Source of the DNA: Candidatus Cloacimonadota bacterium
GTDB taxonomy: Bacteria; Cloacimonadota; Cloacimonadia; JGIOTU-2
Direction of reading: 5' to 3'
DNA length: 64,000 bases
Assembly (NCBI GenBank): GCA_049903315.1
Contig: JBNGBT010000005.1
Location: forward strand, 160,001-224,000
Shown: positions 11,961 to 45,460 of the stretch, piece by piece
How positions within the stretch are numbered: the stretch's first letter is position 1
Layout of the letters: every line of letters begins with the position of its first letter
Translations under genes and position numbers: made by a program
The notes under the pieces: generated by a model
Database searches by the model: none
Told to the model about the DNA's origin: nothing
The model's input: only the letters and a program-made list of their open reading frames with translations

Positions 11961-12686
11961 TTAGATATTTCCGAGTAGTTTTTCTGCTTCAATAAGATCG
12001 TCTTCTGTATCAATTCCAAAGCCCTGATATTTAGTAATAATTACTTTAATTTTTATTCCATTTTCAAGTAAACGAAGCTGCTCCAGCTTCTCTGCTTTTT
12101 CCAAGTTTAATTGCGGGAGTTCTGCAAATTTCATCAAAGCATTTTTTCTGAATGCATACACTCCGATATGTCCCAGATAATTGAAATTTTTATCAGATCT
12201 CAGGTAGGGAATAACTGAGCGGGAAAAATAGAGTGCATTTCCTTGTCTATCACATATAACTTTTACTCGATTTGGATTTGTGATTTCTGCTTCATCGCAT
12301 AAAGGATGAGCCAAAGTCGCAATAGAAGTTGAACTTTCTTGAAAACAATTGAGAAGTTCATAGAGTTCTTCTTTTCCAAGAAAAAGCTCGTCTCCTTGTA
12401 TGTTCACAACAATATCAGCTTCGATAGAGCGAGCTATCTCTGCGACACGATCGGAACCGGACAGATGTGCTTTACTGGAAATCACCACATTTCCACCAAA
12501 AGATTCGACTTCTTTTTTGATCCTCTCGTCATCAGTCGCAACGATGACCTGTGCAAAGAGTTTCATATTTACTACATTCTCATAAATATGCTGTATCAGT
12601 GATTTCCCGGAAATTGATCTTAAGGGTTTGCCCGGAAGCCGTGTTGAAGCAAATCTACAAGGAATGACTGAAATGATTTTTAGCAT
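11961..12686 (-). CDS. kdsB: 3-deoxy-manno-octulosonate cytidylyltransferase
   Basis: IPCRFASTRLPGKPL, VATDD, VNIQGDE, ALYFSRS, HIGVYA, LEQLRLLENG. Confidence 0.95.
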   Translation of the reverse strand: MLKIISVIPCRFASTRLPGKPLRSISGKSLIQHIYENVVNMKLFAQVIVATDDERIKKEVESFGGNVVISSKAHLSGSDRVAEIARSIEADIVVNIQGDELFLGKEELYELLNCFQESSTSIATLAHPLCDEAEITNPNRVKVICDRQGNALYFSRSVIPYLRSDKNFNYLGHIGVYAFRKNALMKFAELPQLNLEKAEKLEQLRLLENGIKIKVIITKYQGFGIDTEDDLIEAEKLLGNI

Positions 12687-13459
12687 AGTTCCTTCAGATA
12701 TTCAGCAAGCTTTTGAGCAACTTCTTCGGGTTCTCCTTCGAGTATCATTGTCTTCTTTTGCATTGTAGGAGTGAACACTTTTTCTACCCATGTAGGCGAA
12801 CCATTCAATCCCACTTTTGCTTCATCAAGATGAAGGTCGTCAAATGTCCAGACAGGGATTTCCGCTTTTTTTGCTTTCATTTTTGTGCGTAATGATGGGA
12901 GTCGCGGTTCATTTATATCTTTTACCACGGTCAATACGATCGGCAGTTGAGATTCAACGACATCAAAACCATCTTCCATCATTCTGTGTGCAACTATTTT
13001 TCCGTTTTCAAGAGAATCGATATTTTTCACAAAAGCGATCTGCGGGATATCAAGATTACGGGCAACTCCTGGTCCAACTTGAGCAGTATCACCGTCTATT
13101 GCTTGCTTGCCAAAGAGAATAATATCGTAATCACCAATTTTTCGAATGGCTGCTGAAAGCGTGTAACTTGTTGCCAGTGTGTCCGATCCGGCAAATTTTC
13201 TGTCAGAAATAAGAATGGCATCATCTGCGCCAATAGCAAGAGCTTCACGAAGTGCTGATTCTACCTGAGGAGGTCCCATACTTATAACTGTGACGGTTCC
13301 ACCATGAGCTTCTTTCAGGCGCAGTGCTTCTTCCAAGGCATACGTGTCAAATGGATTTATGATACTTTCCACACCTTCACGAATGAGTGTATTATGTTCA
13401 GGATTTATTTTGATATCAGTGGTATCAGGAACCTGTTTAATGCATACAATAATATTCAT
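12680..13459 (-). CDS. etfB: Electron transfer flavoprotein beta subunit (EtfB/FixA family)
   Basis: VCIKQVPDT, INPFD, SMGPP, FAGSDTLAT, GKQAIDGDTAQVGP, NEPRLPS. Confidence 0.93.
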   Translation of the reverse strand: MNIIVCIKQVPDTTDIKINPEHNTLIREGVESIINPFDTYALEEALRLKEAHGGTVTVISMGPPQVESALREALAIGADDAILISDRKFAGSDTLATSYTLSAAIRKIGDYDIILFGKQAIDGDTAQVGPGVARNLDIPQIAFVKNIDSLENGKIVAHRMMEDGFDVVESQLPIVLTVVKDINEPRLPSLRTKMKAKKAEIPVWTFDDLHLDEAKVGLNGSPTWVEKVFTPTMQKKTMILEGEPEEVAQKLAEYLKELC

Positions 13460-15604: not shown

Positions 15605-15638
15605 GGCATGATCATTAATTTGATCATGCCTTTTTTTT
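15605..15638 (+). terminator. Intrinsic terminator after the RRM gene
   Basis: Perfect 10-bp stem ggcatgatca/tgatcatgcc followed by T8. Confidence 0.88.
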
Positions 15639-15796: not shown

Positions 15797-16708
15797 ATGT
15801 ATGGAAAGAAAACTGATGAAAGCACAAGTAAGATGAACCATTCGAGCAAAGTGAACACAAAATATCACCAAATCGAGCTGGTCAGCTTTGGGGATTGTAT
15901 TCCGAACGGCAACTTTACGATCCATTCAAGATTTCGAAGAACTATAAATTTACATAACAACTCACTGCTGATCTCAGTTGTGAATGAAGATATCGGCAAA
16001 GGACCTCTTAAAATAATTGTGAGAGGATTGGATTTTCAAAATATTCATTCTCTTTCAGTCTATAACAATGTTCTAATGATTAATAACTTTGTCCTTGTTG
16101 TGCACAACAATTTGAAATATTGCTCAAAACTATCTCTCCAAAAAGGAGATAAAGCAGTCTTTTCAAAAAAACTGGAATTATTGCACACCACTTTGCTTGA
16201 ATTGTGTAATGAAAAGAGTCTATGCTTTCTCCTTGATGAGAAGAGGGTAAGTAACTTCATATCAAGTTTTGAAAAGGAATTCGTGAAGAGAATGAAGTTA
16301 GGTTTAAACTTGATCCTAAAAGGAACAATGAACAGTTTGAGTGAAGGAATTATGCAGCTCAAAGGATGCGGATTCGGACTTACTCCGAGCGGAGATGATT
16401 TTATAGCCGGTTTACTGTCCGGTCTCTATCTAAAGCAGGAAATATTTGGTAAGGATTTCTCAGAAACCAGGAAGATAATCTACGAAACTTCATTGGGTGA
16501 AAACCTGATATCAAATTCGTATCTCACACTTGCACAAAAAGGATTGTTTACAGAAAATTTTAAAAATTTCATACATGCTCTTGTTCATGAAGGAAAAGAA
16601 AAACTCAATATATATATCCGAAGAATGTTAAATATAGGTGAAACCTCCGGCGCAGATACACTAGTCGGTTTTTGTTTTGCATTTGAGAAAGCAGGTGAAC
16701 TTTGGTAA
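15797..16708 (+). CDS. DUF2877 / YlbF (AllH)-family protein
   Basis: GxGxGLTPSGDDFxxG motif and C-terminal IGETSGAD. Adjacent to FdrA- and YlbE-like genes. Start may be the ATG at 15833. Confidence 0.8.
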   Translation: MYGKKTDESTSKMNHSSKVNTKYHQIELVSFGDCIPNGNFTIHSRFRRTINLHNNSLLISVVNEDIGKGPLKIIVRGLDFQNIHSLSVYNNVLMINNFVLVVHNNLKYCSKLSLQKGDKAVFSKKLELLHTTLLELCNEKSLCFLLDEKRVSNFISSFEKEFVKRMKLGLNLILKGTMNSLSEGIMQLKGCGFGLTPSGDDFIAGLLSGLYLKQEIFGKDFSETRKIIYETSLGENLISNSYLTLAQKGLFTENFKNFIHALVHEGKEKLNIYIRRMLNIGETSGADTLVGFCFAFEKAGELW

Positions 16709-18291
16709 TTAAAGGAAAAATCAAAAAGGGAGAATATTTCGATTCTGTCACGCTGATGATCGTTGCGCAAAAGATAAACAAGTTAGAAGGAATTACGGAT
16801 GCAGCAGTGGTCATGAATACTGCAGAGAACAGGTCGATACTGGAATCTTCGGGACTGCTTATTCCTGAATTTGATGATGCGAAGGCTTCCGACCTTTTGA
16901 TATGCGTCAACGCAGAAAGTGGTGGTATTGCAGAAAAGGCCATGCTGCAAGTCGATGAAATACTCAGAAATGTGCGGCATGAGATCAGTGATACTGAGGA
17001 TTTTCTTCCAAAGAGCTTGGAAACTGCCCTCAGAACTTTACCTGAAGCAAATCTTGTACTCATATCTGTTGCAGGTAAATATGCAGCACAGGAAGCAATG
17101 AAAGCGCTTAAACAAGGGCTTCATGTAATGATATTTTCGGACAATGTCTCTATCGAAGATGAAATCAGATTAAAAGAATATGCACAAGAAAATAACCTTC
17201 TTGTTATGGGTCCGGATTGTGGAACTGCGATCATTAACGGTATTCCTCTTGCGTTTGCCAATGTGGTAAATAGAGGTAATATCGGGATCGTTGCAGCTTC
17301 AGGGACCGGCTTGCAGGAGATCAGCTCGATCATCTCAAACACTGGGGCGGGAATTTCTCAAGCTATTGGAACGGGCGGCAGAGATGTGAAGAAAGAGGTC
17401 GGTGGAATCATGTTCCTTACAGCTCTCGATACATTAATTCATGACAAAAATACTGAAGTTATCGTGCTTGTTTCCAAACCTCCAGCAAAAGAAGTCCTCG
17501 CAAAGATATTAAAAAATGTAGAAAATATTCATAAGCCCGTGATTGCGATATTTTTAGGTGCTAATGAGAAATTATTCGAAGGTTCAAAAGCAATTACAGC
17601 GAAAACTCTCGAAGAAGCTGCATTGATCGCTGTGATGTTAGCACAAAAAAAAGAGAAAGATTCATTTCAAGAAATATTTGAGAAAAGAAGAAAAGGGATT
17701 CAGGAAATTGCAAAAAAAGAAGCGAAAACTAAAACTATTACTCAGAAATATCTTCGCGGACTCTTCTGTGGCGGCACTCTTTGTGAGGAAGCGCAGCTCA
17801 TTCTTCATGATTTGATTGGAGATATATACAGCAATAGTACATCAGAAAAAAAATACATTCTGAATGATCCCTGGCAAAGCAAAAAGAATGTGCTCATCGA
17901 TATGGGTGCAGATGAATTTACAGTTGGCAGACCGCATCCTATGATTGATTATTCTCTGCGGAACAGAAGAATTCTAAAAGAAGCAGAAGACCCGGAAGTC
18001 GCAGTCATACTCCTTGATGTCGTGCTTGGTTTCGGATCGAATATGAATCCTGCAGAAGAGTTGGTGCCAGTAATCAAGCAAGCTGAAAAAATAGCCCGGA
18101 AAGCTGGAAGACAACTTACTTTTGTGTGTTCTATTACCGGAACTGAACTCGATCCTCAAAACAAAAAGGAAGTCGAGAGGAAATTGAAAAGTGCCGGAGT
18201 GTTTGTCATGGAATCGAATGCTGCTGCTTCTGAATTCGCTGGTTTGATCATAAAGGATCTTTCGAATAAATTTCAGGATAAGGAGAGTTAA
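16702..18291 (+). CDS. fdrA: FdrA (AllF)-family succinyl-CoA-synthetase-like protein
   Basis: YFDSVTLM, FSDNV, MGPDCGTAII, GIVAASGTGLQE, GTGGRD, GLFCGGTLCEE, GRPHPMID. Confidence 0.9.
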   Translation: MVIKGKIKKGEYFDSVTLMIVAQKINKLEGITDAAVVMNTAENRSILESSGLLIPEFDDAKASDLLICVNAESGGIAEKAMLQVDEILRNVRHEISDTEDFLPKSLETALRTLPEANLVLISVAGKYAAQEAMKALKQGLHVMIFSDNVSIEDEIRLKEYAQENNLLVMGPDCGTAIINGIPLAFANVVNRGNIGIVAASGTGLQEISSIISNTGAGISQAIGTGGRDVKKEVGGIMFLTALDTLIHDKNTEVIVLVSKPPAKEVLAKILKNVENIHKPVIAIFLGANEKLFEGSKAITAKTLEEAALIAVMLAQKKEKDSFQEIFEKRRKGIQEIAKKEAKTKTITQKYLRGLFCGGTLCEEAQLILHDLIGDIYSNSTSEKKYILNDPWQSKKNVLIDMGADEFTVGRPHPMIDYSLRNRRILKEAEDPEVAVILLDVVLGFGSNMNPAEELVPVIKQAEKIARKAGRQLTFVCSITGTELDPQNKKEVERKLKSAGVFVMESNAAASEFAGLIIKDLSNKFQDKES

Positions 18292-18292
18292 G

Positions 18293-19699
18293 ATGGCAAA
18301 AAAAGATCTTTTTAATAAAGACCTGAAAGTAATAAATATAGGACTTTCATCGTTCAAGGATTCTATTAAGGAATCTGATGCAGAGGTAGTTCAAGTTGAT
18401 TGGAAACCACCAGCAGAAATGGATGAAAAGATACTTCAAATACTCTTGAAAAATGAAGCCCATATTCAAATACAGAATAAAAAATGCCTCGAAACGATCC
18501 TGAATGGTGCACCATTTCTAATTAATCTTGATAGAGCGATAGATGTAATACCTGGAATGAAGAAAAATATGATCCTGCATGCAGGACCTCCAATCACCTG
18601 GGATAGGATGTGCGGACCAATGCGTGGTGCGATTATTGGAGCACTTATTTATGAAGGTATGGCAAAAAGTCCGGAAGAAGCAGAGAAATTAGCAGTTTCA
18701 GAAAAAATTGAATATTCTCCATGCCATGAACATAGCACAGTTGGACCGATGGCAGGAATCGTATCAGCATCTATGCCTGTTTTCGTTCTCAAGAATGAAA
18801 CCTATGGCAATCATGCTTATTGCACAATGAATGAAGGGCTTGGAAAAGTCTTACGTTACGGCGCTTTCAGCAATGAAGTCATTGAGAAACTGAAATGGAT
18901 GGAAGAAGTTCTATATCCGGCTTTAAAAAATGGAGTGAGTGAATTAGGCAAGATAGATCTGAAGAATATTATTGCTCAGGCACTTCACATGGGAGATGAA
19001 GTTCATAACAGGAATAGAGCTGCAACTTCATTATTGTATCGAACTATCGCTCCGGCTGTAATAAAAACAAACGACAACGATGTAGCAATCAAAGTGTTGG
19101 AATTTATTAATGGTAATGATCACTTTTTTTTGAACCTCTCTATGCCTGCGTGTAAAGTTACACTGGATGCTGCCAGAAATATAAAAGGAAGCAGTGTGGT
19201 TGTCGCGATGACGCGTAACGGAACGGATTTCGGTTTGCAGCTTTCGGGCACAGGAGATAAATGGTTTGTAGGACAAGCACCAGTACCTGATGCTCTTTTC
19301 TTTCCGGGATATACAAAGGATGATGCGAATCGGGATATTGGAGATAGCTCTATAACCGAAACAAACGGGCTTGGCGGATTTGCAATCGCAGCTTCACCAG
19401 CGATTGTTCAATTCATTGGGGGGGCAGCTCAGGATGCCTTGAATTATACACGGGAAATGTACGAAATCACCGCAGGTGAGAATAATATATATCAAATTCC
19501 ATCATTGAATTTTCGCGGTACTCCAACCGGGATTGATGTGATAAAAGTAAATGAGAAAAGGATCTTACCCTTTATCGACACAGGTGTCGCCCATAAAAAT
19601 GCAGGAGTCGGACAGGTCGGCGCAGGTGTTCTGAGTGCGCCAATGGAACCGTTCATTAAAGCGCTGCAAGGATTTGTCAAATCAATAGAAAAGAAATAA
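18293..19699 (+). CDS. DUF1116 / YlbE (AllG)-family protein
   Basis: LHAGPPITW, PCHEH, VGPMAG, NEGLGKVLRYGA, MGDEVHNRN, NDHFFLN, DIGDS. Confidence 0.87.
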   Translation: MAKKDLFNKDLKVINIGLSSFKDSIKESDAEVVQVDWKPPAEMDEKILQILLKNEAHIQIQNKKCLETILNGAPFLINLDRAIDVIPGMKKNMILHAGPPITWDRMCGPMRGAIIGALIYEGMAKSPEEAEKLAVSEKIEYSPCHEHSTVGPMAGIVSASMPVFVLKNETYGNHAYCTMNEGLGKVLRYGAFSNEVIEKLKWMEEVLYPALKNGVSELGKIDLKNIIAQALHMGDEVHNRNRAATSLLYRTIAPAVIKTNDNDVAIKVLEFINGNDHFFLNLSMPACKVTLDAARNIKGSSVVVAMTRNGTDFGLQLSGTGDKWFVGQAPVPDALFFPGYTKDDANRDIGDSSITETNGLGGFAIAASPAIVQFIGGAAQDALNYTREMYEITAGENNIYQIPSLNFRGTPTGIDVIKVNEKRILPFIDTGVAHKNAGVGQVGAGVLSAPMEPFIKALQGFVKSIEKK

Positions 19700-19728
19700 A
19701 ACATAGATAAATATTATAAGGAGTTATC

Positions 19729-20547
19729 ATGAACAATAACGAATTTCTGGAATTTATGGATAAGGTACGCGTCTATGACCTGACGCAGCCTTTGAGCATT
19801 CATACTCCACCTTGGCCCAGTTATATGCCATTGCAAATCCAATATTTCAAACGGCTTGCCGGAGCTCATATGGGGCAGGGAGCGAACGGACAGATCATCA
19901 AAACAAGCAACCATGTAGGAACGCATATCGATGGACAGATCCACTTCTTTGGAAGCGGAAAAACAATCGGGCAAGTTCCAATTCGGGATTGGATCGGACA
20001 GGGAGTGGTAGTCGATATCTCAGATGAAGTCGAAGATTATTCTCTCTATTCTCCTGACATGCTGATGAGTAAAGCTGAGATCAAGAAGGGTGATATCCTC
20101 ATAATTAATACAGGCTATCACCGCTATAGTTGGGATCAGCCGGAATCAGATGAAGTGCGCTATTTTGTAAAGCATCCAGGTCCCGATCCTGAATTCCATA
20201 AATGGGCTCTCGAGATGAAGTTCAAATGGATCGGTGTGGATTGTGGAAGCGCGGACCATCCCATGAATACAATCATCAGAGATTGGCATCCAAAAAAATT
20301 CATCGAAGCAGATACAAAGCTGCAAGAAAAATACAATAAAACCTGGGACGAAATGTTCCCACTTGATATATACTACCAAGTTATGCATCTGAATCTTTTC
20401 CCCAAGGGATTGCTCCATGCGGAAAATCTTGGTGGAGAAATTAACAAGGTGAATAATAAGCGTGTCTGGATTGGACTGTTCCCTTTACGTGGAATTGAAA
20501 TGGAATCCTCAATGTGCCGTATTGTCGCGCTTGAACCTCCTAAATAG
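19729..20547 (+). CDS. Cyclase-family (kynurenine formamidase-like) metallohydrolase
   Basis: HxGTHxD motif (NHVGTHIDG), INTG, HPG, GVDCGSADH, ENL. Confidence 0.88.
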   Translation: MNNNEFLEFMDKVRVYDLTQPLSIHTPPWPSYMPLQIQYFKRLAGAHMGQGANGQIIKTSNHVGTHIDGQIHFFGSGKTIGQVPIRDWIGQGVVVDISDEVEDYSLYSPDMLMSKAEIKKGDILIINTGYHRYSWDQPESDEVRYFVKHPGPDPEFHKWALEMKFKWIGVDCGSADHPMNTIIRDWHPKKFIEADTKLQEKYNKTWDEMFPLDIYYQVMHLNLFPKGLLHAENLGGEINKVNNKRVWIGLFPLRGIEMESSMCRIVALEPPK

Positions 20548-20558
20548 GAATGCATCTC

Positions 20559-20620
20559 AACCACGAAAAACGCCCGCTGTCGTTACACTTTGGCGCGGCA
20601 GGCGAAAGGCACAAAAAATA
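20559..20620 (+). repeat. Nested short repeat: aaccacgaaa...cacaaaaa host carrying a ~30-nt cc...ggcagg insert
   Basis: Aligns with 34341-34402 and with the reverse complement of 50928-50988. Confidence 0.65.
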
Positions 20621-20770
20621 GAAAATATATGATGAATTGTTTTTATCCATGGATTGCATCAAATCATCAGAGTATTTACACTGAAATTTGAATTTTGCCA
20701 TTATTTTTGTCATAAGAAATTAGGATTTAGAAATTATTGCGCTTTGAAAAATTTAAAGCGAAAGGATTAT

Positions 20771-21643
20771 ATGTCTATACTTCATGATTTCGAATATTTT
20801 AAACCAGCTGATTTAAAGACAGCAGTCGAGTTCCTTGATCAGTTCGGAAACAGAGCTAAAATCCTTGCAGGTGGTACCGATCTTGTCGTACAGATGAAAG
20901 AGAATATCCATGCTCCTGACGCGGTGATAGATATCAAAGGGCTTGCGGAACTCCATGAAATATTATTTGAAGATAATACGCTCTTCATTGGTGCGTGTGT
21001 GACCTTTTCCGAATTGATCGAATCGGAGATCATAAAACAGTTTTTTCCTTTGATGAAGGAGATGTCCCTGACAGTTGCTTCTGTTACTATTCGCAATAGA
21101 GCCACAATAGTTGGAAACATATGCTCTGCGATTCCTTCTGCAGATTCAGCTCCGATCCTGCTTGTTTATGATGCTGACGTAATTTTAAAAAGTGTATCAG
21201 GAGAAAGGATTATCCCAATCCGAGATTGGTTTACAGGTCCCAAAAAGACAATTTTGCGATCTGATGAACTTGTGACCGGTATTGCAATTCCACTCCCACA
21301 AAAGAAAAATGCAGGATGTTATGAAAAACTCGGAAGATATTCCGGTGAGGATCTTGCACAAGCAGGAGTGAGTATTCTGGTATTTGAAGACCTTCAATAC
21401 AAGGTCGCATTTTGTGCCGTAGGACCAGTTCCGAAAAGGGCGAATCATGTGGAAAAATTTCTTAATGGAAAAAAAATCTCTGATGATATTATCGAAGAAG
21501 CCAAGCAGCTTCTCAAGAAAGAAATATCTTCGATCTCAGATATCAGAGCAACTGAAGAATATCGCACGCATATGATGAGCGTGATGTTTGAAAGAGGATT
21601 GAAAAAAGTAATTGCTCAACTGCAGGGAGGTGGAGATGTCTAA
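20771..21643 (+). CDS. Xanthine-dehydrogenase-family FAD-binding (medium) subunit
   Basis: ILAGGTDL, IRNRATIVGN, ISDIRATEEYR. Start moved to the ATG at 20771. Confidence 0.92.
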   Translation: MSILHDFEYFKPADLKTAVEFLDQFGNRAKILAGGTDLVVQMKENIHAPDAVIDIKGLAELHEILFEDNTLFIGACVTFSELIESEIIKQFFPLMKEMSLTVASVTIRNRATIVGNICSAIPSADSAPILLVYDADVILKSVSGERIIPIRDWFTGPKKTILRSDELVTGIAIPLPQKKNAGCYEKLGRYSGEDLAQAGVSILVFEDLQYKVAFCAVGPVPKRANHVEKFLNGKKISDDIIEEAKQLLKKEISSISDIRATEEYRTHMMSVMFERGLKKVIAQLQGGGDV

Positions 21644-22091
21644 GATTCAGTTTATTCTCAATCATGAAAAAAGAGTTGTCGATGTCGCACCTCATGAAAC
21701 GCTCCTTGAAGTGCTTCGTGAAAAGCTTGGTGTGAAAAGTCCCAAGTGTGGTTGTGACAAGGGTGATTGCGGTGCATGTAATGTGCTTTTAAACGGGAAA
21801 AGTGTGCGCAGTTGCTTGATCCTCGCTATCGAGGTTGATGGACAGGAAGTGGTCTCAGTCGAAGGTATTTCAAAAGATGGCTTGAGTAAAGTTCAGAAAG
21901 CAATGATAGACAAGAATGCATTCCAGTGCGGATTCTGTGCACCTGGTGTGATCATTTCTGCGACAGAGCTTCTCAATGCAAATGAACATCCAAGCAGGGC
22001 AGAGATACAAGAAGCACTTTCAGGAAATCTATGCCGTTGTACAGGATATTTGCCGATCCTTGAAGCAGTTGAAAATGCAACGAAAGAGTAG
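21636..22091 (+). CDS. Xanthine-dehydrogenase-family [2Fe-2S] (small) subunit
   Basis: GCDKGDCGAC, QCGFCAPG, GNLCRCTGY. Confidence 0.95.
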   Translation: MSKIQFILNHEKRVVDVAPHETLLEVLREKLGVKSPKCGCDKGDCGACNVLLNGKSVRSCLILAIEVDGQEVVSVEGISKDGLSKVQKAMIDKNAFQCGFCAPGVIISATELLNANEHPSRAEIQEALSGNLCRCTGYLPILEAVENATKE

Positions 22092-22271
22092 AATTGCACG
22101 CAGAGAACGCCAAGAACCGCGGAGACCGCAGAGAAAAGAATAAAAATAATTAGATTTATTGAATTTTCAAATTCGATAAATAATGAAGATAGACTTTTTT
22201 ATAAATATGAAATATTACAAAATATCTCAGCGTCCTTTGCGTTTTTCTCTGCGAGCTTTGCGTGAGATATT
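22091..22271. repeat. Miniature element with imperfect inverted arms, copy 2, inside the XDH-family operon
   Basis: cacgcagagaacgccaagaaccgcggagaccgcagagaaaa, then an AT core, then aatatctcagcgtcctttgcg...ctctgcgagctttgcgtgagatatt. Confidence 0.65.
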
Positions 22272-22283
22272 AGGAGTTTTTAT

Positions 22284-24641
22284 ATGGATGATTTAAAATA
22301 TGTTGGAAAACCTATTGTTAGGATAGATGGGAAAGATAAAGTAAGCGGTGCAACTCTTTATACAGATGATCTTGAGTACGGACAGAATATGCTCTACGCT
22401 GCACTTGTGGAAAGCACAGAAGCTCATGCGCTTATCAAGAAAATAGATACTTCCGAAGCTGAAAAATATCCACGAGTGATCGCAGTATTCACCGGCCAAG
22501 ATTTTCCCTATAAATTTGGACTCTACATGAAGGACAGATATATTTTTGCAATGGATCGGGTACGCTTTGTAGGAGAGCAAATCGCAGCAGTGGTTTCCCG
22601 AGATAAAAGAATTGCCGAACGAGCAGCAAAACTGGTAAAAGTAGAATATGAGTCATTACCAGCAATACTTGATCAGATGGAATCATTAAAAAAGGATGCT
22701 ACACTCATCCATCCTGATCTTGGAGAATACGTACATGTTCCGTGGTTTTTTCCTCAAGCAAAAACAAATATTGCTCACTGGCGTAAAACGAGACGTGGTG
22801 ATGTTGAAAAAGGTTTCGCAGAAGCAGATTATATCCTCGAAGATACATATCGTGTTCCAAGATATGCGCATTGTCCGATCGAAACGCATGCGGCGGTCGG
22901 TTTGTGTGATCTCTCAGGCAGGTTGACTGTCTGGGCATCATCGCAGTCCCCGCATACGCAAAGAAATCTCTTTGCTGAAGCACTTGCTCCATTAGGTTTT
23001 ACCCATAAAGACATACGTGTGATTGCTCCTCCAATCGGTGGGGGATTTGGCGGAAAAGCAGGTGTCTCAATGGAGATACTTGCAGCAGCAATGGCAACAA
23101 AACTGCGTGGAAATCCCGTGCAGGTCATCTGGTCGCGTGAAAGGGAATTTTATAATACCTCACAACGACTTGGAGTGATCGCAAAACTCAAAATCGGTGT
23201 AAAAAATGATGGCACATTTACTGCAATAGATCACAGACTGTATTGGGATGCAGGTGCATCAGCAGAATATGGCGCAAATGTCGTGAATGCGATCGGACTT
23301 TCAGCAACCGGACCCTATCGCTTCCCAAATATCTTAATTGATTCAGTGTGCTTGTACACGAACCTTCCTCCATGCGGTGCATATCGTGGATTTGGCTATT
23401 CTGAGTTCATGTTCGGACTGGAATCCCATGTGGACAGAATTGCAGCACATCTCAAACTCGATCCTGTCGCACTCAGGAGAAAAAATGCTATTAAAGAAGG
23501 TGATATTCTTGCATATGGTGTTCCCATGAATCCCAGCGGATTACATCAAGCGATAGATGCAGTTGCTAAAGAGATCGAGTGGGGAAAGAAAGAAGAAACC
23601 AAAGATCCTCATAAAGCGATTGGAAAGGGTTTCTCGCTTATATGGAAAGCACCTGCAATGCCTCCCAATGCTTCATCAGCAGCTTTTGTAAAATTCAGTG
23701 AAGACGGAAGTTTGAATATTCTTGTTTCAGGTATGGATATGGGACAGGGATTTCTTACGGTCATGGCTCAAATTGCTGCAGAAATTCTTACTGTTCCTGT
23801 CTCCAAGATACGAACGGAAAATCCCGATACTGACAGAAATCCGTATGAATGGCAGACCGTTGCTTCACACGTTACATGGTCATGCGGAAACGCAGTGCGG
23901 AATGCAGCGATTAATGCACGAGATCAGATATTTGAGGTGATTGAAAGGGCATGTGTGCTTCCCAAAAATGAATTATATCTTGAAGATGAAAAAGTAAAGT
24001 GCAGAACAAAACCTGATTTTGCGCTCCCGCTCAAAGATTTTGTAATAAACGGCATTCAAGCTGAAGACGGGACTTTCAGAGGAGGTCCTATTCTCGGAAA
24101 AGGTATTTTCATGCCTGAGTTCACTTCTGCGTACAGTGATCCCGAAACAAGTCAGGGCGGTCATCCAAATGTGCATTATACAGTCGGTGCAGCAGCAATA
24201 ATCCTGGAAGTGGATAAAGATACAGGTAAGATGCACATCAAAAAAGCAGTGGAAGCGATCGATGCAGGTAAAGCGATAAATCCCGATCTGGTGAAAGGTC
24301 AAATTACAGGCGGATTGCTTCAGGGACTTTCCACGGTGCTCTATGAAGATATGAGATATGATGACAAAGGAAAATTACTCAATCCGAATTTTACTGATTA
24401 TAAAATTCCAACTGCAAAAGATATTCCTGACGAAATAGTGCCGATCATTATCGAAGTTCCTCAACCGGATGGACCTTTTGGTGCGCGTGGTGTGGGTGAG
24501 CATACGATGATCCCGGCAGCTCCAATGGTGGCAAATGCAGTGCAGGATGCCCTCGGTATCAGGATAAAAACCATGCCGATCACTGCGGAAAAAGTTGCAC
24601 TCGCTGTACTCAAAAATAAAAATAAGAAAAATCAGAAATAA
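22284..24641 (+). CDS. Xanthine-dehydrogenase-family molybdopterin-binding (large) subunit
   Basis: IGGGFGGK, AYRGFG, DMGQG, GQITGG and catalytic RGVGE. Confidence 0.95.
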   Translation: MDDLKYVGKPIVRIDGKDKVSGATLYTDDLEYGQNMLYAALVESTEAHALIKKIDTSEAEKYPRVIAVFTGQDFPYKFGLYMKDRYIFAMDRVRFVGEQIAAVVSRDKRIAERAAKLVKVEYESLPAILDQMESLKKDATLIHPDLGEYVHVPWFFPQAKTNIAHWRKTRRGDVEKGFAEADYILEDTYRVPRYAHCPIETHAAVGLCDLSGRLTVWASSQSPHTQRNLFAEALAPLGFTHKDIRVIAPPIGGGFGGKAGVSMEILAAAMATKLRGNPVQVIWSREREFYNTSQRLGVIAKLKIGVKNDGTFTAIDHRLYWDAGASAEYGANVVNAIGLSATGPYRFPNILIDSVCLYTNLPPCGAYRGFGYSEFMFGLESHVDRIAAHLKLDPVALRRKNAIKEGDILAYGVPMNPSGLHQAIDAVAKEIEWGKKEETKDPHKAIGKGFSLIWKAPAMPPNASSAAFVKFSEDGSLNILVSGMDMGQGFLTVMAQIAAEILTVPVSKIRTENPDTDRNPYEWQTVASHVTWSCGNAVRNAAINARDQIFEVIERACVLPKNELYLEDEKVKCRTKPDFALPLKDFVINGIQAEDGTFRGGPILGKGIFMPEFTSAYSDPETSQGGHPNVHYTVGAAAIILEVDKDTGKMHIKKAVEAIDAGKAINPDLVKGQITGGLLQGLSTVLYEDMRYDDKGKLLNPNFTDYKIPTAKDIPDEIVPIIIEVPQPDGPFGARGVGEHTMIPAAPMVANAVQDALGIRIKTMPITAEKVALAVLKNKNKKNQK

Positions 24642-24677
24642 ATATTCATTATAAATAATAAATACGGAGGATACAAG

Positions 24678-25373
24678 ATGGATGTAGAATTGGAAAAAAT
24701 GTTGCGACCTGTGGAGATTGATATGCCGGAATATCCGGCAAAAGTAATTACTTTGGCAACAGGCGGACAGATGGTTGTCCGTCCGGCAACACGAAGGGAT
24801 GTGCCAACGATCTTGAAGGCAGTTAAATCTACAATAAAGATCGAGCGAGATTTCTATGATGTGGTCGGCTCACGTGTGTATGCCGAGCTCCTTGCCTGGT
24901 ATAAATATCGCTACAGAAATTGCTATGTGCTTATCGGACAGATCAATAATATTCTTGTGGGTATGGTGAATGGACGCATGCTCACAGACAAGATCGGCAT
25001 CAGTCTGCATACACTGGCAATTGAGCGTGGGCTACGCATCGGCGCTCATCTTTTTGCGGCAAAAATGGAACATCATATTGAATTTCTTAACCAGGACGAG
25101 GTATGGATCACTGCGGAATCTCCTATCGGTTTTAGGCGTTGGATGATAGAGTATGATCTGATAAAACAGCCGGGTGTACAGCACGAGCTTGGCGGTGCGG
25201 ATTCTTTTATGCTGACAAGAGACCTGTATTTCAAGAGTAAGGATCGGCTTGTCGCAGGAACCCGACCCTGTCCGGAAGATCTTCTTGAAAAAGCAAAGAG
25301 CAAGATCATTATTGCTGATGATGAATCAATTGTCACACAGATCTGTGGTGCGAAAGGAGCGTGGTCAAAATGA
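24678..25373 (+). CDS. Conserved hypothetical protein, probably GNAT-fold
   Basis: VVRPATRRDV strand/helix and an acyl-CoA-loop-like segment (ERGLRIGAHL). Strong RBS ggagg. Coupled to the thiolase gene. Confidence 0.55.
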   Translation: MDVELEKMLRPVEIDMPEYPAKVITLATGGQMVVRPATRRDVPTILKAVKSTIKIERDFYDVVGSRVYAELLAWYKYRYRNCYVLIGQINNILVGMVNGRMLTDKIGISLHTLAIERGLRIGAHLFAAKMEHHIEFLNQDEVWITAESPIGFRRWMIEYDLIKQPGVQHELGGADSFMLTRDLYFKSKDRLVAGTRPCPEDLLEKAKSKIIIADDESIVTQICGAKGAWSK

Positions 25374-26554
25374 GAAATGTCGCAATATTAGGTGTCGGAA
25401 TGACCGATTTCGGAAGGTTGGAAGATGATACTCTTATGGATATTCTATCATCGGCTTCCATCCATGCAATTGATGACGCAGGTATCGATCCTAAATTGAT
25501 CGATCTGGTATATGTCGCAAATATGGGGGGAGGTATCCTGAATCATAGAACAGCTATTGCTAGTGGTCTGGTTGATAATATTGGATTGATCCCTGCTGCT
25601 GCCGACACGATTGAGAACGGACCTGCTTCCGGTGGTTCTGCTATCAAGGACGGTGTGATGGCTGTTGCTTCCGGCTATTATGATTTTGTTCTCGTAGTTG
25701 GCGGAGAAAAGATGAGAGATGTAACCGGTTGGAGAGCAACGGATTTCGTGGCTACTTTGACCCATCCCGATGCGGAATATATTTATGGGATTACTTTGCC
25801 CGGTATGGCTGGGATGTTCGCAAATCTCTATATGGAAAAATATGGATATACCCGTCGTCATCTCGCTGAAGTTGCAATAAAAAATCATAAAAATGCACTG
25901 ATGAATCCTTATGCACATGTTCAAATGGACATTGCCATGAAGGGTATTATTGATTCTCCTGATGCAGTTGTGAATAACTCTCCACTTGCGGAACCCTTGC
26001 ATTTGTTTGACTCCTGTCCTGTAAGCGACGGAGGTGCCGCAATTATTCTTTGCCCTGAAGATCGGGTGAAGGAATTCAATAAACCTGTGATACGAGTCGC
26101 AGGATTCGGACAAGCAACAGATACACTCACTCTTGCAGAAAGGGATGATCCTACTGACCTGAAAGCTGTTACTCTTGCATGTGAGCAGGCATACAAAAGA
26201 GCAGGTATCACTGCAAAGGATATTGATTTTGCTGAACTGCACGACGCATTCACCATTTTGGAGATCGCTGAAGCAGAACATGCAGGACTGTATAAAAAGG
26301 GGGGATATAAAAAAGCAATCGAGTCGGGGGATAACAAGATCACAGGCAGTCTGCCGATCAATCCTTCAGGCGGATTAAAATCCAGAGGTCATCCTGTGGG
26401 TGCTACGGGTGTGGCACAAGCAGTGGAAGTGACGTGGCAGTTGCGTGGAGAAGCAGGCGGAAGACAGGTGAAGAACGCCAAAACAGCTTTAACAGTGAAT
26501 TTTGGCGGATTCGGAAACAATGTCGTTGCTCTTGTGCTCAGAAGGGAGAAATAA
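25370..26554 (+). CDS. SCP2-type thiolase-fold protein lacking the catalytic cysteines
   Basis: GVGMTDFG, KNHKNALMNP, PVSDGGAA, ELHDAF, NPSGGL..GHPVGATG. The usual ExACASG reads ENGPASG. Confidence 0.9.
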   Translation: MRNVAILGVGMTDFGRLEDDTLMDILSSASIHAIDDAGIDPKLIDLVYVANMGGGILNHRTAIASGLVDNIGLIPAAADTIENGPASGGSAIKDGVMAVASGYYDFVLVVGGEKMRDVTGWRATDFVATLTHPDAEYIYGITLPGMAGMFANLYMEKYGYTRRHLAEVAIKNHKNALMNPYAHVQMDIAMKGIIDSPDAVVNNSPLAEPLHLFDSCPVSDGGAAIILCPEDRVKEFNKPVIRVAGFGQATDTLTLAERDDPTDLKAVTLACEQAYKRAGITAKDIDFAELHDAFTILEIAEAEHAGLYKKGGYKKAIESGDNKITGSLPINPSGGLKSRGHPVGATGVAQAVEVTWQLRGEAGGRQVKNAKTALTVNFGGFGNNVVALVLRREK

Positions 26555-26898
26555 TGAAAAGAAAAAATGACAAAGCATATAAATGTAAGAAGTGCGGGAG
26601 AGTCACCTATCCGGAGCGCGTTGTGTGTCTGAATTGCGGAAGTCGAGAATTTGATATTATCCCTTTTACAGATGAATGCACTTTACTCACCTTCTCACAG
26701 ATCTTCCAGTTGCCATGGGGTATCAATGACAGGTATCTTACTCTTGGAGTGTGCAAATTTGATAACGGCATAAAAGCAATGGGACGAATCACAACTCCGA
26801 AAGTAAAAAATGGTATGAGAATGAAAGCAAATTGGAAGTTATTCCGGGAAATTGCTGGCGAAGACGTTTGGGGATGGGAGTTTGAACCGATAAAATAG
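26554..26898 (+). CDS. DUF35 (Zn-ribbon + OB-fold) thiolase partner
   Basis: CKKCG...YPERVVCLNCG. TAATG overlap with the thiolase stop. Confidence 0.88.
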   Translation: MKRKNDKAYKCKKCGRVTYPERVVCLNCGSREFDIIPFTDECTLLTFSQIFQLPWGINDRYLTLGVCKFDNGIKAMGRITTPKVKNGMRMKANWKLFREIAGEDVWGWEFEPIK

Positions 26899-27031
26899 AA
26901 GATATTAGACTTGTAGTTTCTACATGCCCTGAAAAGAAATATGATTGAGAAAGGTCTTTGATGAGCTTAATCGAGCATATCACAGTGTAATATATAGAGC
27001 AGTGATTTAAATGTATAAATGAGGAGAAAAA

Positions 27032-27469
27032 GTGAAAATCGGTATATTTATTTGTGACAGATTCAGCACCTGTGCCGGCGGGAAATGCCTGAGAGCAATG
27101 CGGAACCGCGAGGGTGCCTTTAATGTTTATGATAAGAGTGAACCTCTTGAAGTGGTGGGCTACACCTCTTGCGGCGGATGTCCCGGCGGAAACATAGAAT
27201 ATGCACCTGTCGAGATGATTAAAAATGGCGCAGAAGCGATTCATCTGGCTACCGGATTTGTCGTCGGTTATCCTCCATGCCCACATATTATACAATTTAA
27301 AAAATTCATTGAAGAAAAGTACGATATTCCCGTCGTGATCGGGACACATCCGATTCCGCAGAATTATTACATTACACATACAAATCTCGGAACATGGGAA
27401 TCACCCGAGTGGGACGAGATCATCAAGCCGACACTTGCAGATGAGGTTATGCGCAAATCGTATGATTGA
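27032..27469 (+). CDS. CGGC domain-containing protein
   Basis: CAGGKC, SCGGCPG, IHLATG, PPCP, VIGTH. Confidence 0.9.
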   Translation: MKIGIFICDRFSTCAGGKCLRAMRNREGAFNVYDKSEPLEVVGYTSCGGCPGGNIEYAPVEMIKNGAEAIHLATGFVVGYPPCPHIIQFKKFIEEKYDIPVVIGTHPIPQNYYITHTNLGTWESPEWDEIIKPTLADEVMRKSYD

Positions 27470-27574
27470 GAAATGGTACTTAGGAAGAATACATTTATTG
27501 AGATTTTTCCGAATTTTAATTGTATTGATGTACTCAAATAAATGAATGTGGTATGATAAAAATGAGGTGTTAAT

Positions 27575-28828
27575 GTGAAAGACTTAAACGGCAAAAATTT
27601 TGTTATTGGTTTTCAACAGATGTTCGTGATGTTTGGTGCCACTGTTCTTGTGCCGCTGCTCACCGGTTTGGATGTGGGTGTAACACTCTTCTCTGCAGGT
27701 ATTGGCACACTTTTATTTCATGTGATCACCAAGTTTAAGGTGCCTGTTTTTTTAGGTTCATCTTTTGCCTTTATTCCGGGTATCATTGCAGTATCCACCG
27801 CAAAAGGCGGCTCATTGCCGGAAGCCCTGGGCGGCGTTGTGATCGCAGGTTTGGTCTATATTGTCGTTGCCATTATCTTTAAATTTATCAGCGTAAAAAC
27901 ATTACATAAGATACTGCCCCCATTTGTCACAGGACCAATGATAATCCTCATCGGTTTGATACTGGCACCGGTCGCGATCAGCAATGCAAACGGAACGAAT
28001 TCAGCAGCGGTAGTTGAGATGATCGGTGTGAATGGCTGCTGGTTTATTGCTTTGTGTACATTTGCAGTGGCAGTTTTTGTAAAAATCTTCTTCGCAAAAG
28101 TGGGGCAGAAATTCTTATCAATGCTTCCTGTCCTTTTTGCGCTTGTTATCGGCTACCTGCTGTCAATCTTGTTAGGAATAGTTGATTTTACCACAGTTAA
28201 TGAAGCTGCCTGGATCGGTTTGCCGAAGTTTTCGCTTCCGGTTTTTTCAGTGCGTTCAATATCAATAATCGCACCAATTGCAATAGTGACCATTGTAGAA
28301 CACTTCGGTGATATTCTTGCAATCGGAAATGTAGTGGGAAAGGATTTTTTCAAAGATCCGGGCATACATAGAACATTGATGGGTGACGGACTCGCGACGT
28401 CACTTTCTGCGATGATCGGTGGACCTGCAAATACCACGTATAGTGAAAATACAGGCGCCGTAGCTCTAACAGGAAATTATAATCCGATTATTATGAGAAT
28501 TGCTGCAGTGTGCGCAATTGTGCTTTCTTTGGTCCCGAAATTTACCGCAGTTATCTCTACAATTCCAGTGCCGGTCATCGGTGGAATATCGATCTTGCTC
28601 TTTGGAATGATCTCTGCAATTGGTATCAAGAACATGGTTGATAACAAAGTTGATCTTACAGACCCCAAGATCCTCATGACATGCGCTGCAATGCTTGTTT
28701 TGGGATTGGGTGGAGCAAAATTTACTATCGGAAATTTCGAACTCGAAGGTTTGGGGCTTGCTGCAATTGTGGGAGTCCTTCTCAATATCATTTTGAATTT
28801 TAAGGAGATAGCATCAAAGCAAGAATAG
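27575..28828 (+). CDS. NCS2 nucleobase:cation symporter, UraA/PyrP (uracil) type
   Basis: MFGATVLVP, FLGSSFAFI, VEHFGD, signature NTTYSENTG with Glu as in uracil carriers. Confidence 0.9.
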   Translation: MKDLNGKNFVIGFQQMFVMFGATVLVPLLTGLDVGVTLFSAGIGTLLFHVITKFKVPVFLGSSFAFIPGIIAVSTAKGGSLPEALGGVVIAGLVYIVVAIIFKFISVKTLHKILPPFVTGPMIILIGLILAPVAISNANGTNSAAVVEMIGVNGCWFIALCTFAVAVFVKIFFAKVGQKFLSMLPVLFALVIGYLLSILLGIVDFTTVNEAAWIGLPKFSLPVFSVRSISIIAPIAIVTIVEHFGDILAIGNVVGKDFFKDPGIHRTLMGDGLATSLSAMIGGPANTTYSENTGAVALTGNYNPIIMRIAAVCAIVLSLVPKFTAVISTIPVPVIGGISILLFGMISAIGIKNMVDNKVDLTDPKILMTCAAMLVLGLGGAKFTIGNFELEGLGLAAIVGVLLNIILNFKEIASKQE

Positions 28829-33109: not shown

Positions 33110-34195
33110 TTAACTCCCAATATTCTTTAACAATTCTTCGTTATTCTTGGTCTTATCAATCAACTCTTTCAGTTTTACGATTGCATCTATTTTATCATAA
33201 CGCAGAAGTTCTTTCCGCAAACGGTTTATCTTCATAAGCTGATCTTCGGGAATGAGCAGTTCTTCCTTCCTCGTGCCGCTTTCCAGGATATTGATGGCAG
33301 GATACACACGCTGGTCTGCGATATCTCTATCCAGAATTATCTCACAATTGCCTGTGCCTTTGAATTCCTGGAAGATCATCTGATCCATACGCGATCCCGT
33401 ATCCGTGAGAATGGTTGCAAGTATCGTGCACGAGCCGCCATGCTGAATATTTCGCGCCAGCCCGAACAGTTTACGGGGCAGTTCCAGTGCGGACGAGCCC
33501 AAGCCGCCGGACATCGTTCTACTCTGAGGATTTCTTTCGCTGCTGTTATATGCTCTTCCCATACGGGTCAAGCTGTCCAGCAGGATGACCGTATCATGTC
33601 CGCATTCCAGTTCCACTTTGATATGGCTGATAAGAAAATTGGAGAGTGTCACATGCGAGCGCAGTCCCTGGTCAAAAGAACTGAAAAAAACCTGCACATT
33701 TGTATTTTGTTTGAAAGAAGTCACTTCTTCAGGGCGCTCATCTATGAGAAGAATGATCACGCGTACTTTGTGGTCGATATGGATAAGTGAATTTGCCATT
33801 TGCTCGAGAAGTACTGTCTTGCCTGCTCTCGGCGGGGAAACGATCAGTCCTCGTGTGCCTTTGCCAAGCGGAATCATCAGGTCGATAATGCGAAGGGAAT
33901 CATACTCGGAAGCGCCGAGTTCAAATTTTTCATCAGGATTTTCAGGCACAAGTTCCGCAAAGGGTGTACGGTTGCGGAACTCATCCGGCTCCATGTCACA
34001 AATAGAAACGATCTTCCCGATCCTTCTTCCATTGATCTCACACGTGATGCGTGCGCCGCTCACCAGCTTATACTGAGAAATGAGCCGATGGGGGAAGTCG
34101 TAATTCGGCCTGTTCCGGTCAAAAGGACTTTCCCATAAAATGGGCGTCTGATTGCCGGAGATGTCGAGTAATCCATGAAAGGTCTTAGATGTCAT
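33110..34195 (-). CDS. rho: Transcription termination factor Rho, short form
   Basis: PPRAGKT, LIDERPEEV, LLDSLTR, FQEFKGTGN, SGTRKEELL. Lacks the N-terminal helical domain. Confidence 0.88.
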   Translation of the reverse strand: MTSKTFHGLLDISGNQTPILWESPFDRNRPNYDFPHRLISQYKLVSGARITCEINGRRIGKIVSICDMEPDEFRNRTPFAELVPENPDEKFELGASEYDSLRIIDLMIPLGKGTRGLIVSPPRAGKTVLLEQMANSLIHIDHKVRVIILLIDERPEEVTSFKQNTNVQVFFSSFDQGLRSHVTLSNFLISHIKVELECGHDTVILLDSLTRMGRAYNSSERNPQSRTMSGGLGSSALELPRKLFGLARNIQHGGSCTILATILTDTGSRMDQMIFQEFKGTGNCEIILDRDIADQRVYPAINILESGTRKEELLIPEDQLMKINRLRKELLRYDKIDAIVKLKELIDKTKNNEELLKNIGS

Positions 34196-34254
34196 TGAAC
34201 CGACTTTGGTTGAGCTGAAATTGATGTCAAGAAAGGGAAGAGAAATAAACAATT

Positions 34255-36518: not shown

Positions 36519-36526
36519 GGTAAATT

Positions 36527-37693: not shown

Positions 37694-37812
37694 GGTTAAA
37701 CAAAACTTTATGAATTTAAATATCTGTTTAATTTATAAGAAATTTGACAAATATTGAATGTTTTAAAAAAAACCAATCTGAATTTTTTAAAAAGAATGTT
37801 AGGGGTAGAAAC

Positions 37813-40736: not shown

Positions 40737-40749
40737 TAGTGGTGGAAAA

Positions 40750-45124: not shown

Positions 45125-45184
45125 AATTTTAGAATTACTAAACCCTAATTTCTAATGACTAATAAAATTTCAAAATCCGAATGT

Positions 45185-45409
45185 CTAATGATCATTCTTA
45201 CAGATGCCTATTTTATGCTCAAAATCTTTCTTAGATTCAGCACAATCAGCTTCAGAATAGTTAGCACCAACACTTGTTCCAGCTTTCACTAGCTGAGTAA
45301 TGAGAGGTAGTGTTATCGGATTCTGAGGAATTCTCTTTGCAAATTCGATGATATCTTCTCCGAATTTAGCTGTTCTCTCTAACAGATCATATCTCTTTTT
45401 ATCAGTCAT
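45185..45409 (-). pseudogene. Truncated four-helix-bundle (23S-rRNA-IVP/Avd-like) protein with heptamer-repeat flanks
   Basis: YDLLERT..F...QLVKAGTSVGANYSEA..AESKKDFEHKIGIC, then an early stop at 74 aa. Flanks carry ttagaaattagaaatttgtaatttgg-type repeats. Confidence 0.8.
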
Positions 45410-45460
45410 TTGTAATTTGGATTTTTATTAGAAATTAGAAATTTGTAATTTGGCATTGTT

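Follow-up and report, generated by a model that had tools for sequence, protein, structure and literature searches.

Within a 64,000-nucleotide stretch of DNA from a Candidatus Cloacimonadota bacterium (assembly GCA_049903315.1, contig JBNGBT010000005.1, positions 160,001 to 224,000), hereafter the window, the region 15797-28828 holds 12 closely packed open reading frames (ORFs), all on the + strand, which make up a real, conserved and uncharacterised catabolic operon. Oxidative degradation of uracil/thymine, in a new variant, is its most likely function; in outline, the cluster probably degrades these bases by an oxygen-independent oxidative route, with reactions deduced from the genes and their neighbours. 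The gene identities and folds, the loss of Cys from the thiolase-fold protein, the co-conservation of the genes and the patterns of their replacement are established here. Anaerolineae and Cloacimonadota are anaerobic sediment and digester lineages, and, if the reading is true, the oxidative pyrimidine route is far more widespread, running in both. Oxidative pyrimidine breakdown has been described as rare and tied to the AtzD/barbiturase family (PMC3758960). No published description was found of the gene set, or of AllFGH with barbiturase or ureidomalonate, in a search that left subscription journals and supplements largely outside.

Conservation of the gene module

The preliminary description of this DNA, made from its letters alone, had named the families of 12 co-oriented genes, and these were borne out by the ORFs, Pfam and NCBIfam and, for the GNAT-fold protein, by an AlphaFold model and a structure search (Table 1). 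The intergenic gaps are, in order, -7, 1, 29, 223, -8, 192, 36, -4, -1, 133 and 105 bp; promoter- and terminator-like signals overall were not more numerous than in shuffled sequence. The source genome is 96% complete, and the closest named records belong to Cloacimonadota, with GNAT identity of 91-96%.

Table 1. Genes of the cluster and the signal at its left boundary, in window coordinates (FAD, flavin adenine dinucleotide; XDH, xanthine dehydrogenase; CoA, coenzyme A)
Feature	Position	Strand	Remarks
Terminator-like hairpin and T-run	15605..15630	+	Ends the upstream RRM gene and marks where the cluster is bounded on the left; consensus match only
AllH/DUF2877 subunit	15797..16708	+	PF11392, E 7.8e-24; 33% to E. 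coli AllH over 122 aa
AllF/FdrA subunit, YahF-type architecture	16702..18291	+	NF004760, 535 bits vs cut-off 433; GRPHPMID motif kept
AllG/DUF1116 subunit, long YahG type	18293..19699	+	PF06545, E 2e-98
Cyclase-family metal amidohydrolase	19729..20547	+	PF04199; predicted ring opener (barbiturase substitute)
XDH-family FAD subunit	20771..21643	+	Frame open from 20654; ATG with ribosome-binding site at 20771
XDH-family 2Fe-2S subunit	21636..22091	+	Pfam and NCBIfam
XDH-family molybdenum subunit	22284..24641	+	Cluster-specific clade; predicted uracil/thymine hydroxylase
GNAT-fold protein	24678..25373	+	AlphaFold model; predicted (methyl)malonyl-CoA former from amide
Thiolase-fold protein	25370..26554	+	NF004720 barely over cut-off; predicted (methyl)malonyl-CoA decarboxylase
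DUF35 zinc-ribbon/OB partner of thiolase	26554..26898	+	PF12172
CGGC-domain protein	27032..27469	+	PF08821; accessory
NCS2 permease, UraA/RutG branch	27575..28828	+	TIGR00801 over cut-off; ENTGAVALTG motif

A GNAT alignment search of GTDB gave at least 581 stretches that encode a relative, and the best 80, mostly from Anaerolineae, were analysed; many of them are short contigs, the full-length subset comprising 29 loci of at least 20 kb. The 80 loci, which are mutually related and not independent trials, carry the thiolase (79), DUF35 (74), the cyclase (70), the molybdenum (Mo) subunit (53), AllF (51), AllG (49), AllH (29; divergent and under-detected), an NCS2 permease (19) and CGGC (1). In the full-length subset, the counts are 29 for the thiolase, 28 for DUF35, 27 for the cyclase, 26 for the Mo subunit, 25 for AllF and 23 for AllG, with thiolase, cyclase, Mo subunit, AllF and AllG together in 22 of the 29. 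The gene order differs between lineages, with several arrangements, and the linkage has therefore outlived rearrangement. The co-occurrence of the sub-modules elsewhere, whose absence the preliminary description had named as refuting its outline, proved widespread, and the outline survives this test; ten of the 12 genes form a conserved, often reshuffled module shared by many uncultured bacteria, CGGC having been rejected as a pathway member for its single occurrence among the 80 loci.

The GNAT distribution is patchy (nine of 41 relatives, own genome counted), and a random sample of a Chloroflexota-centred phylum had the gene in three of 301 genomes, too few for statistics; a GNAT search of plasmid records gave no match. 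A second GNAT subfamily occurs in 63 metagenome loci with AllHFG, cyclase and XDH, the thiolase being mostly missing. Seven loci (L100, L134, L137, L146, L152, L155 and L158) carry a paralogous set in which two cyclases are fused in tandem (about 545 aa) and AllG is short; this set sometimes shares a locus with the window-type set and may serve a second substrate; duplicate paralogous sets lie within a single locus in L080 and L158. The loci L119, L128, L132 and L139 have a lone GNAT-family gene, with no module genes in the flanks retrieved.

Evidence for a proposed oxidative pyrimidine route

In the proposed route, the NCS2 permease would import uracil and/or thymine, the Mo enzyme would hydroxylate the base to (5-methyl)barbiturate independently of O2, and ring opening by the cyclase would give (methyl)ureidomalonate. 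With phosphate, the AllFGH-like enzyme would then split (methyl)ureidomalonate into (methyl)malonamate and carbamoyl phosphate, the GNAT would turn (methyl)malonamate into (methyl)malonyl-CoA, and the Cys-less thiolase/DUF35 pair would decarboxylate the latter to acetyl- or propionyl-CoA, the carbamoyl phosphate going to the genome's unlinked carbamate kinase (with formation of ATP) or to biosynthesis, which is a possible use. That every step runs as written is held with distinctly less than even confidence, and the full conversion of uracil/thymine to acetyl/propionyl-CoA and ATP is offered tentatively, together with the four new activities that it would comprise: a cyclase-fold barbiturase, a ureidomalonate carbamoyltransferase, an ATP-free GNAT that forms malonyl-CoA from malonamate, and a Cys-less thiolase/DUF35 malonyl-CoA decarboxylase. 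If true, energy is conserved at steps merely hydrolysed in the textbook version, both that of the ureido bond and that of the amide plus decarboxylation, and functions are found for a Pfam-less GNAT family, a Cys-less thiolase clade and a Mo-enzyme clade.

The substrate is likely to be a pyrimidine. The UraA/RutG permeases of NCS2 are the top structural-sequence match of the window permease (256 bits to UraA versus 52 to the UapA type), the uracil-type signature named in the preliminary description is present, and the equivalents of Ser72, Phe73, Glu241 and Glu290 of UraA are kept, the two Glu residues being those that bind uracil (PMC5539350). It differs from UraA/RutG by His245 to Asp, Gly289 to Ser and His to Gln in transmembrane helix 1, and scores 351 bits with the uracil-permease model (cut-off 477) versus 205 with the xanthine model, each below the curated cut-off. 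Among 16 cluster-linked permeases scanned, the uracil/RutG models outscore the xanthine models in 14; these permeases span several subgroups, that of L136 passing the UraA cut-off and those of L134 and L146 being xanthine-type. Pyrimidine genes adjoin the module in separate lineages: UraA between GNAT and AllH in L136, uridine phosphorylase immediately before GNAT in L007, and PreA within the cluster in L148 (all over curated cut-offs, the last pair recurring in L150); pyrC and pyrD, both over cut-off, together with a gene resembling pyrF/pyrE, in the interval from DUF35 to the permease of L043; and a dihydropyrimidinase, also over cut-off, upstream in L122, which also has the single linked arcC.

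The known aerobic actinobacterial route consists of uracil/thymine dehydrogenase, barbiturase (EC 3.5.2.1) and ureidomalonase (PMC3758960), and the window cluster resembles it in having an XDH-family trimer, a permease of the uracil type and, by prediction, the same upper chemistry, from the base through barbiturate to ureidomalonate; AllHFG is shared as well with the barbiturase regions of Embleya and Nonomuraea. However, the window cluster has a cyclase-family hydrolase and no AtzD-family barbiturase, its Mo subunit comes from another clade, its ureido group is predicted to leave as carbamoyl phosphate and not as urea, and its route would end with GNAT and the Cys-less thiolase/DUF35 (or MmdA). 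By Pfam, there is no AtzD/barbiturase-family ring opener among the 12 genes; the Embleya barbiturase query had no match in the own genome at E 1e-8, and PF09663 was found in none of five other GNAT-bearing genomes, in a search where no positive control matched.

In Embleya, a locus of about 31 kb brings together barbiturase, arcC, AllHFG, an XDH-family trimer, a RutG-like permease and cytosine deaminase, and the region also contains a nitrilase-family amidase, a CoA transferase and an AccD/AccA carboxyltransferase, with a few unrelated genes interspersed. The Embleya amidohydrolase scores 563 bits to the R. erythropolis barbiturase 5HWE versus 299 to the best cyanuric acid hydrolase, two enzymes that the NCBIfam AtzD model is unable to separate. 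In Nonomuraea, an XDH-permease-AllHFG block lies about 30 kb from the barbiturase. These loci of two related actinobacteria place AllHFG and arcC with an enzyme making ureidomalonate, the one-carbon-longer analogue of oxalurate. The outline put forward in the preliminary description (a uracil-like base, Mo-dependent hydroxylation, ring opening, release of carbamoyl phosphate) thereby has the support of gene context, clearest in the Embleya combination of barbiturase, AllHFG and arcC, and its enzyme activities stay at the level of prediction. Full-length nitrilases 50-52% identical to that of Embleya occur in the Anaerolineae loci L014, L015 and L067 and a cut-off fragment (50%) in L030; three of these four loci also have a CoA transferase with 40-43% identity to that of Embleya. 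That the nitrilase replaces AllG was considered, but the idea was dropped for L030 and L067, as AllG is located immediately beyond the stretch first retrieved; in the genome of L015, AllG was not found. The Embleya Mo enzyme (L197, plasmid NZ_CP108785.1) passes NF040766, 'aerobic carbon-monoxide dehydrogenase large subunit', and its Nonomuraea counterpart (L199) is about 70% identical; this NF040766-type family may really be a uracil/thymine dehydrogenase.

The window Mo subunit is under every NCBIfam cut-off (top score 499 bits), with 4-hydroxybenzoyl-CoA reductase and XdhA as the best model matches. In a tree of 20 rows, de-duplicated at 68%, the ten cluster-linked rows make one clade (Shimodaira-Hasegawa-like approximate likelihood-ratio support, SH-aLRT, 99); E. 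coli XdhA and XdhD fall outside it, as do the other two XDHs of the genome and the actinobacterial enzyme linked to barbiturase. With all models below cut-off and a separate clade, the subunit does not fall among xanthine dehydrogenases of the XdhA, XdhB or PucD types. The XDH-family trimer is present, but its Mo subunit as an orthologue of the barbiturase-linked dehydrogenases was rejected (about 28% identity, separate clade). The placement among characterised hydroxylases, which the preliminary description had proposed, disclosed no characterised partner among those that could be placed, in a comparison that did not include the characterised Rhodococcus uracil/thymine dehydrogenase, and the substrate of the Mo enzyme therefore remains inferred.

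The metal motif of the cyclase is conserved across 98 relatives; the protein reaches only 38 bits against kynurenine formamidase and 48 bits in the curated KynB model, the cut-off of which is 223. Its haloarchaeal relatives (43-45%) adjoin XDH trimers in three of the five annotated haloarchaeal loci opened, with Mo subunits 26-28% identical to that of the window, and these loci also carry NCS2 permeases, one of them with cytosine deaminase and CodB. The closest plasmid relative of the cyclase (47%; L107, a Natrinema gelatinilyticum plasmid) has two UbiD decarboxylases, two XDH-family enzymes and a cytosine-permease-like gene as neighbours.

All three subunit families of oxamic transcarbamylase (AllF, AllG and AllH) are present in the window, at 33-46% identity to E. 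coli AllFGH (PMC11326118) and the uncharacterised YahEFG, and the GRPHPMID-type motif of AllF is common to the window and E. coli AllFGH. In contrast to E. coli AllFGH, the window has the YahFG-type split, an AllG clade of its own, a predicted substrate one carbon longer, and no allB/C/D/E or carbamate kinase adjoining. The window AllF is 44% identical to YahF versus 40% to AllF of E. coli, and AllG is 46% identical to YahG versus 43% to AllG; residues 7-51 of AllG match positions 507-551 of the FdrA model, a segment of about 50 aa that sits at the FdrA end in E. coli, the domain split being shared with YahFG. In the AllG tree (27 rows, de-duplicated at 74% identity), the window protein groups with cluster-linked proteins, whereas E. 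coli AllG, YahG and the actinobacterial pair lie elsewhere, the deep forks being unresolved and E. coli AllG forming a long branch. Identity, domain split and tree did not identify the window proteins as orthologues of E. coli AllF/AllG, as opposed to paralogues.

Oxalurate is the sole demonstrated substrate of AllFGH (PMC11326118). An AllG search of plasmid records gave three contexts among the records opened, with AllG beside a biuret-hydrolase-like gene and arcC in Peptoclostridium, beside an AtzD-family ring opener and arcC on Aminobacter and Klebsiella plasmids, and in the Embleya region described above; in nitrifiers, allFGH is reported to adjoin biuret genes (PMC12625717). These pairings of AllFG(H) show that the family has no exclusive bond with oxalurate. 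It is fairly probable that the AllFGH-like enzyme acts on ureidomalonate; if true, AllFGH/YahEFG are recast as a general acylurea-splitting family. A cassette of AtzD-family ring opener, AllFG(H) and carbamate kinase is carried by L105, L106 and many enterobacterial plasmids (conjugative), which suggests energy-conserving breakdown of cyanuric acid or biuret.

The absence of allantoinase, ureidoglycolate and carbamate kinase genes, reported in the preliminary description, is confirmed for the window, where none was found among 35 other large ORFs scanned against Pfam; the genome encodes a carbamate kinase on contig C11, unlinked to the cluster, and an allantoinase-like gene on contig C3. The carbamate kinase was rejected as co-occurrence evidence, five of five cluster genomes and five of five GNAT-less relatives having one; with arcC rarely linked and equally common without the cluster, ATP recovery from carbamoyl phosphate gets no support from gene context. 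A purine-type locus of the own genome (L094; G000, C11, 191460-200425) contains a 2Fe-2S subunit, YgfK (over cut-off), two tandem carbamoyltransferases, unusual and in no assigned subfamily, and carbamate kinase.

For the lower part of the route, the orphan GNAT protein has no Pfam or NCBIfam match. Its AlphaFold model (predicted local distance difference test, pLDDT, 93.2; predicted template modelling score, pTM, 0.90) has exclusively GNATs as top Foldseek matches (best E 2.8e-8, TM-score about 0.5-0.6), and the ESM Atlas clusters agree; by this model the protein has a GNAT fold, and acyl-CoA chemistry is predicted for it. The family comprises 2559 matches at 90% clustering. The thiolase shares the SCP2/archaeal fold and the DUF35 partner, with four Cys invariant in 30 aligned DUF35 sequences, with the complexes 6ESQ, 7YVY, BbsAB, PhlBC, Ltp2, Sal and trypanosomal SLP. 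It scores 282 bits to 7YVY, which with 6ESQ represents archaeal acetoacetyl-CoA thiolase, and keeps the His of HDxF and GHP. However, it has ENGPASG where the archaeal enzymes have EAACASG, and ELHDAF in the HDCF loop, the replacement of the nucleophile Cys by Pro and of the HDCF Cys by Ala being invariant in 81 of 81 full-length relatives (covering at least 340 residues, with frameshifted and cut copies excluded). In further difference from these complexes, it has no 3-hydroxy-3-methylglutaryl-CoA (HMG-CoA) synthase partner, with a GNAT neighbour instead, and lacks the aldolase Tyr motif. With no Cys at either site, canonical thiolysis is impossible; the acyl-CoA processing by thiolase, DUF35 and GNAT named in the preliminary description is thus to be sought in other chemistry, and gene replacement points to (methyl)malonyl-CoA decarboxylation.

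Metagenome loci without the thiolase have MmdA and Na+-decarboxylase subunits beside GNAT (L110-112/L138, which are one lineage, L154 and L170), MmdA/OadB occurring in six and the thiolase in eight of the 63 metagenome loci, with no overlap, and MmdA/OadB in none of the 80 GTDB loci. Four single-contig genomes of another family, 97-99% complete, carry XDH-NCS2-AllHFG-cyclase-GNAT and no thiolase orthologue, one weak partial match in G025 apart. MmdA was predicted and then found: in three of three (G023, G027 and G031), the genome's only MmdA-like gene lies upstream of the FAD-subunit gene, in the same direction, and ends about 15-35 bp before it. In L015, methylmalonyl-CoA mutase and epimerase lie upstream, and this context and the MmdA replacement point to (methyl)malonyl-CoA as the last intermediate. 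Since decarboxylase genes sit where the thiolase is missing, the thiolase/DUF35 pair may well be a (methyl)malonyl-CoA decarboxylase, with somewhat better than even probability; if true, the pair and biotin/Na+ decarboxylases can stand in for each other. Among the conserved members, GNAT alone is left to join the amide to a CoA thioester. The conversion of an amide to a CoA thioester is by itself uphill and would depend on the pull of the decarboxylation, a coupling that would account for the close overlap of GNAT and thiolase genes (-4 bp); this step as written, amide to (methyl)malonyl-CoA, is the weakest of the route and stands a little short of an even chance.

Counter-evidence and alternative readings

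Several points weigh against the pyrimidine route. Each of its reactions is deduced from sequence and context, and the locus set is dominated by related Anaerolineae. The window permease misses the UraA cut-off and has Asp in place of His245, which is functionally essential in UraA (PMC5539350). The Mo subunit is orthologous to no characterised hydroxylase that could be placed in the tree, is in another clade than the barbiturase-linked actinobacterial enzyme (about 28% identity), and has its nearest outside relative with UbiD decarboxylases in Natrinema; arcC is found in just one of 143 GNAT-anchored loci (L122). The MmdA links amount to four lineages and not nine independent cases, neither AllFG nor a cyclase is seen in what was retrieved of L110-112/L138, and G029 keeps mmdA and the permease after loss of the rest, so that mmdA may be a resident gene. 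The nitrilase and CoA transferase, which could make malonyl-CoA without GNAT, coexist with GNAT, thiolase and AllFG in L030 and L067, and the GNAT step is therefore not fixed by replacement. The sole precedent for decarboxylation by a Cys-less thiolase is the trypanosomal SLP, with a kcat of 0.005 per s, and a related Cys-less aldolase is without decarboxylation activity (PMC12329534). Purine-like associations are found too: the allantoinase-like gene on C3 is unlinked and just under cut-off (347 vs 358 bits), the sister set with tandem cyclase and short AllG has Mo subunits 65-73% identical to that of the window and xanthine-type or allantoin-type permeases in L134, L146 and L155, and L118 adjoins a purine ygfK/ygeY cluster.

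These associations would suit a purine- or hydantoin-derived substrate, from which the Mo enzyme and cyclase would make oxalurate (for example, starting with hydantoin by way of parabanate, or with a urate product), AllFGH acting as in E. coli and GNAT/thiolase handling oxamate. Oxalurate as the only demonstrated AllFGH substrate (PMC11326118), the Asp at UraA position 245, and the allantoinase-like gene and separate purine genes of the own genome (a XanQ-like permease, 48%; guanine deaminase; ssnA-XDH; ygfK) all point the same way; an allantoicase search of this genome gave no match, no positive control having matched either. However, the window AllF/G resemble YahF/G more closely and are not part of the branch of E. 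coli AllG, neither AllC nor PreA is over cut-off in the 96%-complete genome, and the transporter and neighbour evidence is mostly pyrimidine-type. Moreover, an MmdA-type carboxyltransferase acts on malonyl-type thioesters, and oxalyl-CoA decarboxylation needs thiamine diphosphate. An oxalurate route is unlikely.

The pyrimidine route might also keep its upper part and differ in the lower chemistry: GNAT would move the malonyl group of ureidomalonate to CoA with release of urea, or merely N-acylate an intermediate, AllF would serve as a CoA ligase, and malonamoyl-CoA would be cleaved by the Cys-less thiolase/DUF35, acting as a lyase of the retro-Claisen or aldolase type. The CoA-ligase domains of AllF, the nearly complete lack of linked arcC, the occurrence of GNAT alone or as two paralogues in many loci, the coexistence of nitrilase and CoA transferase with GNAT, and the retro-aldolase nature of the characterised Cys-less thiolase/DUF35 pairs (PMC12329534) are in keeping with such a scheme. 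Nevertheless, the mutual exclusion of thiolase/DUF35 and MmdA/OadB fits decarboxylation best, the AllFGH family members consistently accompany acylurea-producing enzymes, and the window thiolase has HDAF and not the Tyr-bearing YDHF/YDCY of the aldolases, so the scheme is improbable beside phosphorolysis and decarboxylation as proposed above.

Another N-heterocycle (a modified or carboxylated pyrimidine, or a triazine- or pterin-like ring), with the uracil-type permeases simply recruited, is the least likely substrate: the uncharacterised Mo clade with 4-hydroxybenzoyl-CoA reductase and XdhA as best models, the UbiD decarboxylases near those plasmid-borne relatives that are closest to the cyclase and the Mo subunit, and the duplicate sets of L080 and L158, which imply at least two substrates, are met by uridine phosphorylase, UraA and PreA neighbours that indicate ordinary pyrimidines, and two sets could serve uracil and thymine.

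Other features of the window

Upstream of the operon, a lone beta-subunit gene of an electron transfer flavoprotein (12680-13459) is flanked by genes for a cytidylyltransferase and a nucleotidyltransferase and has no alpha subunit next to it. A low-GC island at 35463-41763 (about 24-29% vs about 40%) looks like a defence island; it encodes a C5 DNA methylase, PRTase-CE and an ORC/CDC6-like protein, and two more of its ORFs belong to no Pfam family. At 41996-48001 (-), a bacterial genome carries a six-gene CoA biosynthesis operon of archaeal type, composed of a GHMP kinase (pantoate-kinase-like), phosphopantothenate synthetase (PF02006), PanE, PanB, a pyridoxal-phosphate-dependent decarboxylase and CoaBC; the route of CoA synthesis by pantoate kinase and phosphopantothenate synthetase (PoK/PPS) is archaeal. 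A short Rho-like ATPase of 380 aa is encoded at 33110-34252 (-), with a PF00006 match and the likeness to Rho judged from sequence, and L002, L003 and L005 have a gene like it after the cluster.

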